Source: a virus (Duplodnaviria > Heunggongvirae > Uroviricota > Caudoviricetes). Taken from it: DNA of 6,371 bases. Of this stretch, positions 2,089 through 2,398 are shown piece by piece. The notes under the pieces were generated by a model that searched no databases, was not told the origin of the DNA, and saw only the letters and a list, made by a program, of their open reading frames with translations. Every line of letters begins with the position of its first letter. Positions within the stretch are counted from its first letter, which is position 1. Made by a program: the position numbers and the translations under genes. The stretch spans positions 1 to 6,371 of IMG/VR virus record IMGVR_UViG_2582580933_000012; one strand, written 5' to 3'.

Positions 2089-2163
2089 TGGAGCGGGCAG
2101 CGGGAATCGAACCCGCATCATCAGCTTGGAAGGCTGAGGTAATAGCCATTATACGATGCCCGC
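2089..2163 (-). tRNA. tRNA-Gly (anticodon UCC), glyT-like, CCA encoded
   Basis: Reverse complement is GCGGGCATCGTATAATGGCTATTACCTCAGCCTTCCAAGCTGATGATGCGGGTTCGATTCCCGCTGCCCGCTCCA: 7-bp acceptor stem, perfect T-stem GCGGG/CCCGC, GGTTCGATTCC T-arm, anticodon loop CUUCCAA, U73. Matches E. coli glyT as I recall it. Confidence 0.9.
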
Positions 2164-2166
2164 ATA

Positions 2167-2242
2167 TGGTGCCGACTACCGGAATCGAACTGGTGACCTA
2201 CTGATTACAAGTCAGTTGCTCTACCTACTGAGCTAAGTCGGC
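2167..2242 (-). tRNA. tRNA-Thr (anticodon UGU), thrU-like, CCA encoded
   Basis: Reverse complement is GCCGACTTAGCTCAGTAGGTAGAGCAACTGACTTGTAATCAGTAGGTCACCAGTTCGATTCCGGTAGTCGGCACCA: perfect acceptor stem, anticodon loop CUUGUAA, A73. Confidence 0.85.
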
Positions 2243-2244
2243 AC

Positions 2245-2321
2245 TGGACCGCCACCGGGGACTCGAACCTCGCACACTCAACTTAAAGGGTTGACGCTCT
2301 TTCCTGATGAGCTAGTGGCGG
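2245..2321 (-). tRNA. tRNA-like gene with anticodon UUU (Lys-type) but atypical anticodon loop CCUUUAA (C at position 33) and U73; identity uncertain
   Basis: Reverse complement is CCGCCACTAGCTCATCAGGAAAGAGCGTCAACCCTTTAAGTTGAGTGTGCGAGGTTCGAGTCCCCGGTGGCGGTCCA: perfect 7-bp acceptor stem starting C1:G72, perfect D-stem GCTC/GAGC, perfect anticodon stem TCAAC/GTTGA, GGTTCGAGTCC T-arm with one A-C mismatch, CCA encoded. Confidence 0.6.
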
Positions 2322-2322
2322 C

Positions 2323-2398
2323 TGGTGGCCCTTGCTGGATTTGAACCAGCGACCTGGCGATTATGAGTCGCTCGCTCTCACCACTGAGCTAAAGGGCC
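2323..2398 (-). tRNA. tRNA with CAU anticodon, ileX/ileZ-like (tRNA-Ile2 lysidine type, or elongator Met), CCA encoded
   Basis: Reverse complement is GGCCCTTTAGCTCAGTGGTGAGAGCGAGCGACTCATAATCGCCAGGTCGCTGGTTCAAATCCAGCAAGGGCCACCA, which resembles E. coli ileX as I recall it. Anticodon loop CUCAUAA, A73. Confidence 0.85.

Follow-up and report, generated by a model that had tools for sequence, protein, structure and literature searches.

Clusters of tRNA genes downstream of the Q antiterminator gene have reportedly been known in lambdoid and Shiga toxin (Stx) phages since the sequence of 933W. [quoted passage not shown] Here we describe an array of four tRNA genes – with anticodons CAU, UUU, UGU and UCC – at positions 2089-2398 (minus strand) of a 6,371-nt stretch of viral DNA, IMG/VR record IMGVR_UViG_2582580933_000012; this whole stretch is referred to as the window.

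The array belongs to an established class, the late-region tRNA clusters of lambdoid phages, and hundreds of genomes already have it annotated; in that sense it is ordinary. Its composition and history differ from those of the classical ileZ-argN-argO cluster, and its interest rests on the second gene, with anticodon UUU, and on a coincidence between the content of the array and the known targets of tRNA-cutting nucleases. We read it, with a probability of roughly 0.55, as a self-contained phage tRNA module of mosaic origin, situated in the late region of a lambdoid prophage integrated at ompW, in which three of the genes would contribute to codon supply and the UUU gene stands apart. No paper describing this array was found in our literature searches, nor any open-access paper naming ileZ, argN and argO together.

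The four-gene array and its relationship to the Stx-phage cluster

ARAGORN predicts four tRNA genes and no more in the window, each on the minus strand, and an Rfam search with all families matches the same four and no other family. In the order of transcription these have anticodons CAU (2323..2398), UUU (2245..2321), UGU (2167..2242) and UCC (2089..2163), and they score 72.5, 44.4, 73.8 and 64.9 bits, respectively, with RF00005, for which the gathering score is 29 bits (E-values from 6e-15 to 3.5e-7). Each match covers model positions 1-71 of 71, so that none is truncated, and all four genes encode the 3′ CCA, as read from the sequence. The first-pass annotation, which had proposed four intact genes with these coordinates, anticodons, spacers and CCA ends from inspection, is thus correct on all of these points, and the genes are real and intact. 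Minimum-free-energy folding of the single tRNAs was uninformative, yielding no cloverleaf even for genes identical to those of the host, and the covariance-model calls were used instead.

The genes are separated by only 1 nt (position 2322), 2 nt (2243-2244) and 3 nt (2164-2166). Such tight packing is not specific to phages: the host operons lysT-valT-lysW-valZ-lysY, valV-valW and leuQPV likewise have 2-3 nt spacers between tRNA genes that encode CCA (2 nt for valT-lysW, 3 nt for valZ-lysY). The phage array differs from these in mixing four isoacceptor families of differing evolutionary origin.

A 561-nt stretch is identical in Escherichia coli O80:H26 strain EC-107, where it belongs to a 43-kb prophage inserted at ompW; the window is part of a lambdoid prophage of E. 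coli. In EC-107 the tRNA genes are about 18 kb inside the prophage, counted from its integrase end, and the same array is present in the sequenced induced phages PhiR47_1, vB_EcoM-606R7 and vB_EcoS-689R5. These observations bear out the earlier view that the genes are phage cargo, and rule out a host integration site. Along the minus strand the order of transcription is DUF968/YdfU, RusA, Q, an opposite-strand cassette, a hairpin, a promoter-like element, the tRNA genes, a spacer, holin, YdfR, lysozyme and Rz, with DUF968, RusA, Q (119 aa, PF06530; 4192-4551), holin, YdfR, lysozyme and Rz all in the same strand as the tRNAs. The placement of the array between Q and the holin on the late strand was thus right as to position and strand, with the qualification that a 1.6-kb cassette of opposite orientation (2631-4178) intervenes between Q and the tRNAs.

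The CAU gene is identical at 76 of 76 positions to ileZ of the Stx2a phage, and less similar to K-12 ileY (70/76) and ileX (68/76), which substantiates the suspected link to the ileZ-argN-argO arrays. It retains C4-G69 and C5-G68 within acceptor strands 5′ GGCCCUU and 3′ AAGGGCC, and these acceptor pairs reportedly set tRNA-Ile2 apart from tRNA-Met for TilS (Ikeuchi et al. 2005). By its sequence the gene, which RefSeq labels tRNA-Ile, is ileZ, a tRNA-Ile2 gene whose product would decode AUA after lysidine modification.

Position for position, the Thr(UGU) gene is identical to K-12 thrU (76/76) and the Gly(UCC) gene to K-12 glyT (75/75). In E. coli and Salmonella, the host operon thrU-tyrU-glyT-thrT-tufB has the two genes in the same relative order; the suggestion that the order in the phage differs from that of the host does not hold, as the phage simply has thrU followed by glyT without tyrU. 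Also missing from the phage are thrT, tufB, and the host flanks and spacers. Homology to the host ends at the mature tRNA ends, and the 209 nt that separate thrU from glyT in the host are replaced by the 3-nt spacer TAT. Among the listed IMG/VR loci, the Thr gene is identical to that of the host in 69 of 102 phage copies. A Gly allele with the compensatory changes C6U and G66A is present in 12 other phage copies, a pairing that may be a sign of selection on the phage copies.

The gene described as UUU-type in the first-pass annotation is not a host-like lysine tRNA. Its body is unlike lysT, and it is instead an anticodon-switched homologue of the Stx-phage argN, a tRNA-Arg(UCG), with 65 of 77 positions identical. 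Common to both are an unusual C1-G72 pair, U73 and A20, together with a mismatch, A51.C63, within the T stem. The anticodon arm differs: U33, C35 and G36 of argN are replaced by C, U and U, and the G30:C40 pair by a compensated A30:U40; elsewhere, two G.U pairs of the acceptor stem have become G-C and one U.G has become U-A. The argN of AP012530 is at 2643-2719 of locus L006, and its corresponding derivative in the window has G3-C70; we know of no demonstration that argN is charged with arginine. The anticodon loop of the UUU gene reads C32-C33-U34-U35-U36-A37-A38, with C in place of the near-universal U33. Lysyl-tRNA synthetase (LysRS) takes U35 and U36 of the anticodon as its main determinant, and the arginyl enzyme needs C35, which is lost in the UUU gene; we infer that its product would be charged with lysine by LysRS and would work on the ribosome. 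Of the features of a tRNA-Lys(UUU) it has the anticodon and U36-A37-A38, the context for N6-threonylcarbamoyladenosine (t6A), and lacks A73, U33 and relatedness to lysT; a 36-UAA-38 requirement is stated in PMC13276492. The major allele is labelled tRNA-Lys by ARAGORN, Rfam and RefSeq alike.

The array and the Stx-phage cluster thus have in common their niche, the same ileZ, the same upstream promoter-like element, and a 1-nt gap between ileZ and a second gene that is homologous in the two. They differ in that this second gene has UUU and C33 rather than UCG and U33 and has lost the paired CNG of the anticodon stem, in that argO is replaced by thrU and glyT, and in that no stx genes follow the array. 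Measured against the lambdoid late-region clusters, the location and the ileZ gene with its upstream element are present, and the pair argN(UCG)/argO(UCU) is not.

An intermediate form, ileZ-UUU-argO, is found in PPompW prophages. A scan of IMG/VR with the T-arm sequence common to argN and the UUU gene returned at least 119 stretches, to which loci fetched earlier were added. Of about 120 listed loci, at least about 95 have the arrangement ileZ-1-UUU-2-Thr-3-Gly (spacers in nt), and among the matches listed 12 have ileZ-1-UUU-13-argO (the PPompW type) and five to seven have ileZ-1-argN-13-argO (the Stx type). The position of the UUU gene is thus that of argN, down to the 1-nt and 13-nt spacers, which supports an anticodon switch of argN in place (UCG to UUU), with thrU and glyT copies later taking over from argO. 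Across the arrays the spacers are always GT and TAT, and this constancy points to a single origin of the four-gene form. By this comparison, ileZ and the second gene descend from an Stx-type ileZ-argN-argO cluster, with argN converted where it stood and argO exchanged for the two host-derived genes. When 5,426 complete E. coli genomes are considered, 602 have the four-gene array and 798 (about 15%) have a gene of the UUU type; among GTDB species representatives, the UUU gene is seen only in E. coli and Shigella flexneri.

A promoter-like element upstream of the tRNA genes

A sigma-70-type promoter-like element lies directly upstream of the array (2408..2436, minus strand), composed of TTGCAA and TATTAT with 17 nt between them, followed by nine GC-rich nucleotides, CCTGCGCCC, which run up to the first base of the CAU tRNA. 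In the Stx2 phage, too, ileZ has this element in front of it. Both hexamers and their 17-nt spacing are retained in five upstream variants from IMG/VR loci that have otherwise diverged, and this retention is a phylogenetic footprint of a putative promoter. The scan found no other promoter-like site between the cassette and the tRNAs, and pR′ of the prophage was not located.

The module of promoter-like element plus ileZ follows three Q proteins of 119, 229 and 162 aa (encoded at 4192-4551 of the window, 1747-2436 of locus L129 and 1764-2252 of locus L006, respectively), which are unrelated or barely related, with no more than 27% identity over 79 aa. Because three unrelated Q proteins precede the same module, the tRNA module recombines independently of the Q/qut module, and the element probably belongs to the tRNA module rather than being a Q-specific pR′. 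That TTGCAA-17-TATTAT is pR′ itself is less likely for the same reason. A comparative paper on pR′ makes no mention of tRNAs.

Transcription of the array would begin at this conserved promoter-like element, 9 nt upstream of the first gene, with read-through by Q-modified polymerase from further upstream probably adding to it, and the four genes would be carried on one precursor transcript. Since the spacers are only 1-3 nt and CCA is encoded, separation would depend on ribonuclease P (RNase P), with a cut at each 5′ end and trimming of the 1-3 nt tails by 3′ exonucleases. RNase P cleavage with 3′ trimming is the established route for tightly spaced tRNA operons of E. coli, and Mohanty & Kushner (2007) reportedly found that tight tRNA precursors are separated by RNase P and not by RNase E.

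Codon supply, tRNA-cutting nucleases and the status of the UUU gene

Codons were counted in the annotated genes of the whole prophage and compared with 43 host genes of the same strain. The codons served by the Thr gene (ACA, 2.95-fold), by ileZ (ATA, 2.3-fold) and by the Gly gene (GGA, 1.9-fold; GGG, 1.8-fold) are enriched in the prophage; for ATA, ACA and GGA, Fisher tests made within each codon family yield p values of 1e-8 to 1e-14. AAA is not enriched (1.05-fold), its share of lysine codons being 0.69 in the prophage and 0.75 in the host. The late structural genes show weaker enrichment than the early genes, the cassette or the nleG moron, the excess being largest in early genes and in AT-rich morons such as nleG. 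In nleG, which encodes a type III secretion system effector at the prophage end (43078-43725 of locus L127), the Ile codons are ATA in 53% of cases, the Thr codons ACA in 62% and the Gly codons GGA in 47%; three members of the phage array read exactly these favored codons.

In K-12, thrU and glyT each occur as a single copy. A role in codon supply is reasonable for ileZ, thrU and glyT, which would add minor tRNAs – encoded in the host by single- or two-copy genes – for ATA, ACA/ACG and GGA/GGG. It cannot explain the UUU gene, because AAA is not enriched. The proposal of the first-pass annotation that the array supplies rare codons of late genes is thus supported by the 1.9- to 3-fold enrichment of ATA, ACA and GGA, and is not supported for AAA or for the late genes, which are surpassed by early genes and morons. 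Codon supply is, moreover, an incomplete account of the exchange of Arg tRNAs for Lys, Thr and Gly tRNAs, since the most enriched arginine codons are no longer served: AGG (7.4-fold) and AGA (3.0-fold) were codons of argO, and CGG (3.2-fold) of argN.

Several observations weigh against the reading we prefer. The three most enriched codons are precisely those of the lost argN and argO, and ATA is only weakly enriched in the late structural genes (4.4 vs 3.5 per 1000). The promoter-like site is known from its sequence and may be pR′ itself. The UUU gene has C33, U73 (LysRS uses A73) and the A.C mismatch in its T stem, and has the lowest Rfam score of the four, 44 bits. Its alleles with U8C/C11U/C4U (16 copies) and with a deletion of U12 in the D stem (15 copies) are unannotated in RefSeq, and the frequency of such alleles suggests relaxed constraint. 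A covariation count over 15 alleles of the UUU gene and argN, in which 94% of cells are paired and a single double-sided change is seen, has no statistical power, with 135 of 500 shuffles reaching the observed value.

The points that concern the UUU gene are also those expected of a nonfunctional relic of argN with a mutated loop, kept by being wedged between useful neighbors in one unit, and to them may be added that AAA is not a rare codon and that the host has several genes of the lysT type. We nonetheless regard a relic as doubtful. The loop C33-U34-U35-U36-A37-A38 is invariant in 114 copies representing 14 alleles, whereas position 32 and other sites vary; the stems are improved relative to argN by the two G.U to G-C changes, the U.G to U-A change and the fully compensated pair; and the stem substitutions among the alleles are mostly pair-preserving changes of C to U. 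Three changes within a 7-nt loop together with a compensated stem pair form a concentrated, nonrandom pattern, and the major allele is still called tRNA-Lys by all three annotation sources.

A different fate for the UUU gene is suggested by the recognition motifs of the tRNA-cutting nucleases. The prime targets of AriB, of the PARIS system, are tRNA-Lys(UUU) as well as tRNA-Thr(UGU), which are cut at the site U36AAUC|A41, and cleavage is blocked by two substitutions of T5, U39A and A41C (PMC12409363). The preferred substrate of P2 OLD, through which P2-lambda interference takes effect, is tRNA-ThrU, and the enzyme needs a paired CNG at positions 28-30/40-42 together with A37 (PMC12445682). The UUU gene has neither motif, reading UAAGUU at 36-41 and CAA/UUG at 28-30/40-42. 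Its argN ancestor (GAAGCU; CAG/CUG) has the paired CNG, and the one compensated change at pair 30:40 abolishes both CNGs. The Thr copy has both motifs (UAAUCA, the AriB site; CUG/CAG), and the Gly copy (CAAGCU; CAG/CUG) has the paired CNG, from which tRNA-Gly(UCC) is predicted to be a P2-OLD substrate.

It is accordingly possible, though unlikely, that the UUU gene encodes a counter-defence tRNA, derived from argN by anticodon switching and invisible to PARIS AriB, P2 OLD and PrrC, that would still read AAA and AAG. Escape would follow from its G39-U40-U41 stem (U39-C40-A41 in the host tRNA-Lys), from the loss of the CNG through one compensated change, and from the C33 beside the PrrC cut site. 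The earlier idea that the array replaces tRNAs cleaved by anticodon nucleases hence fits this gene; it does not fit the Thr and Gly copies, which are host-identical and so of nuclease-sensitive sequence. In a comparison with the nuclease-evading tRNAs of T5, the anticodons UUU and UGU are the same, the UUU gene differs from the host tRNA-Lys at 39-41, where the T5 substitutions act, and it lacks the CNG needed by P2-OLD, a likeness at the level of sequence. In contrast to T5, however, the array has only four tRNAs and belongs to a temperate prophage, its Thr copy is host-identical and predicted to be sensitive, and its lysine anticodon is borne on an Arg-tRNA body with C33 and U73. The UUU gene is most likely either a substitute for host tRNA-Lys(UUU) that tRNA-cutting nucleases fail to recognize or a decaying relic, and we consider a nuclease-insensitive lysine tRNA and a relic to be comparably likely.

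The same motifs bear on a broader proposal, that the whole array is primarily a counter-defence device with which the lambdoid phage resupplies tRNAs destroyed by systems borne on P2 and P4. The array does hold Lys(UUU) and Thr(UGU), the prime AriB targets, the latter being also the prime P2 OLD target (PMC12409363, PMC12445682), and the anticodon arm of the UUU gene lacks both recognition motifs; the exchange of argN and argO for Lys, Thr and Gly genes, despite the Arg rare codons being the most enriched, argues for a driver other than codon supply. Two Thr alleles, each present once among the 102 copies (G42C+U43C and G24A+G42U+U43C), have lost the 3′ CNG and have the top of the anticodon stem unpaired; the altered CNG and shortened stem have a reported precedent in phage tRNA-Thr that resists P2-OLD. 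Against this, the Thr and Gly genes of the window and about two-thirds of 100 other copies are host-identical, keeping the paired CNG and, in Thr, UAAUC|A, and the host tRNA-ThrU, when expressed, protected little or not at all against P2-OLD (PMC12445682). Neither Gly(UCC) nor Ile2 is among the reported targets, and ileZ is common to the Stx phages, where its partners are Arg tRNAs. A primary role of the entire array in counter-defence is thus quite unlikely.

Very improbable is a role of the UUU gene in tuning the phage's own -1 frameshift at the A AAA AAG site of the G/GT tail-assembly chaperone: the heptamer is in frame at the end of gene G in the same prophage (31652-31658 of locus L127; junction 31647-31676), with the -1 frame open into the ‘T’ open reading frame (ORF), and both tRNAs slipping there are tRNA-Lys(UUU), but the argument is one from coincidence, with a single locus reaching gene G, the tail and tRNA modules are some 11 kb apart in a mosaic genome, and the abundant host tRNA-Lys would dominate. 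The heptamer is of the dnaX type, and pairing of tRNA-Lys(UUU) with AAG reportedly governs dnaX slippage at A AAA AAG (Tsuchihashi & Brown 1992); the ‘T’ ORF is marked partial in RefSeq.

Neighboring features and biological significance

Between the cassette and the promoter-like element there is an intrinsic-terminator-like hairpin, AAACCCGC-ATCAA-GCGGGTTT (2523..2543, minus strand), identified by a terminator scan and followed by a T run to about 2515. Homology to the phages PPompW and 606R7, related phages that lack the cassette, begins at this hairpin. RefSeq has a 36-aa ‘antiterminator’ coding sequence, WP_086259018.1, at 2456-2566 (minus strand) that spans it and is probably an annotation artefact.

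Downstream of the array, the spacer of about 290 nt between the Gly tRNA and the holin gene contains three consecutive long perfect hairpins, found as inverted repeats (1905..2082, minus strand), with arms of 11 bp (2037-2047/2072-2082), 14 bp (1958-1971/2016-2029) and 9 bp (1905-1913/1951-1959). The 295-nt RNA of this interval folds with -94 kcal/mol (z = -4.2 relative to shuffles), and the hairpins may act in processing or termination. This region is the slot taken by the stx genes in Stx phages. About 60 nt before the holin start is a weak terminator-like element (1858..1880, minus strand), CCGC-UUUU-GCGG followed by U6CU4, which falls under the 5-pair threshold of the terminator scan and resembles a stronger terminator after argO in the Stx2 phage, where the only terminator is in that position.

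The opposite-strand cassette (2631-4178, plus strand) contains ORFs of 292, 81 and 128 aa at 2664-3542, 3546-3791 and 3792-4178. Without a match in Pfam, the 292-aa protein hits PDC-S42, a candidate defence family of PADLOC (E 3e-53), and no matches were found for its 81-aa and 128-aa neighbors; homologues of the 292-aa protein are present in Serratia, Pectobacterium, Pantoea and Raoultella. Its AlphaFold model (predicted local distance difference test score, 78) gives only weak matches to oligonucleotide/oligosaccharide-binding (OB)-fold-like proteins (IF1, eIF5A and SSB). The idea of the cassette as a tRNA nuclease paired with the tRNAs was set aside, as the model yields no nuclease fold and no link between the two was shown.

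The array documents a stepwise remodelling of a phage tRNA cluster, from ileZ-argN-argO through ileZ-UUU-argO to ileZ-UUU-thrU-glyT, which includes the conversion in place of an Arg anticodon into one for Lys and the acquisition of two host tRNAs, cut back exactly to their mature ends. In the remodelled set are the tRNAs that PARIS and P2 OLD mainly target, Lys(UUU) and Thr(UGU), with a UUU gene that has neither published motif. These two systems ride on P4 and P2 elements, which compete with lambdoid phages in E. coli, and the array bears on the question of whether tRNAs serve temperate phages, as they do T5, in countering defences that cut tRNAs. If the tentative counter-defence role of the UUU gene is true, it would have no precedent in a prophage and would exemplify a foreign tRNA body that acquired a new decoding identity in place.

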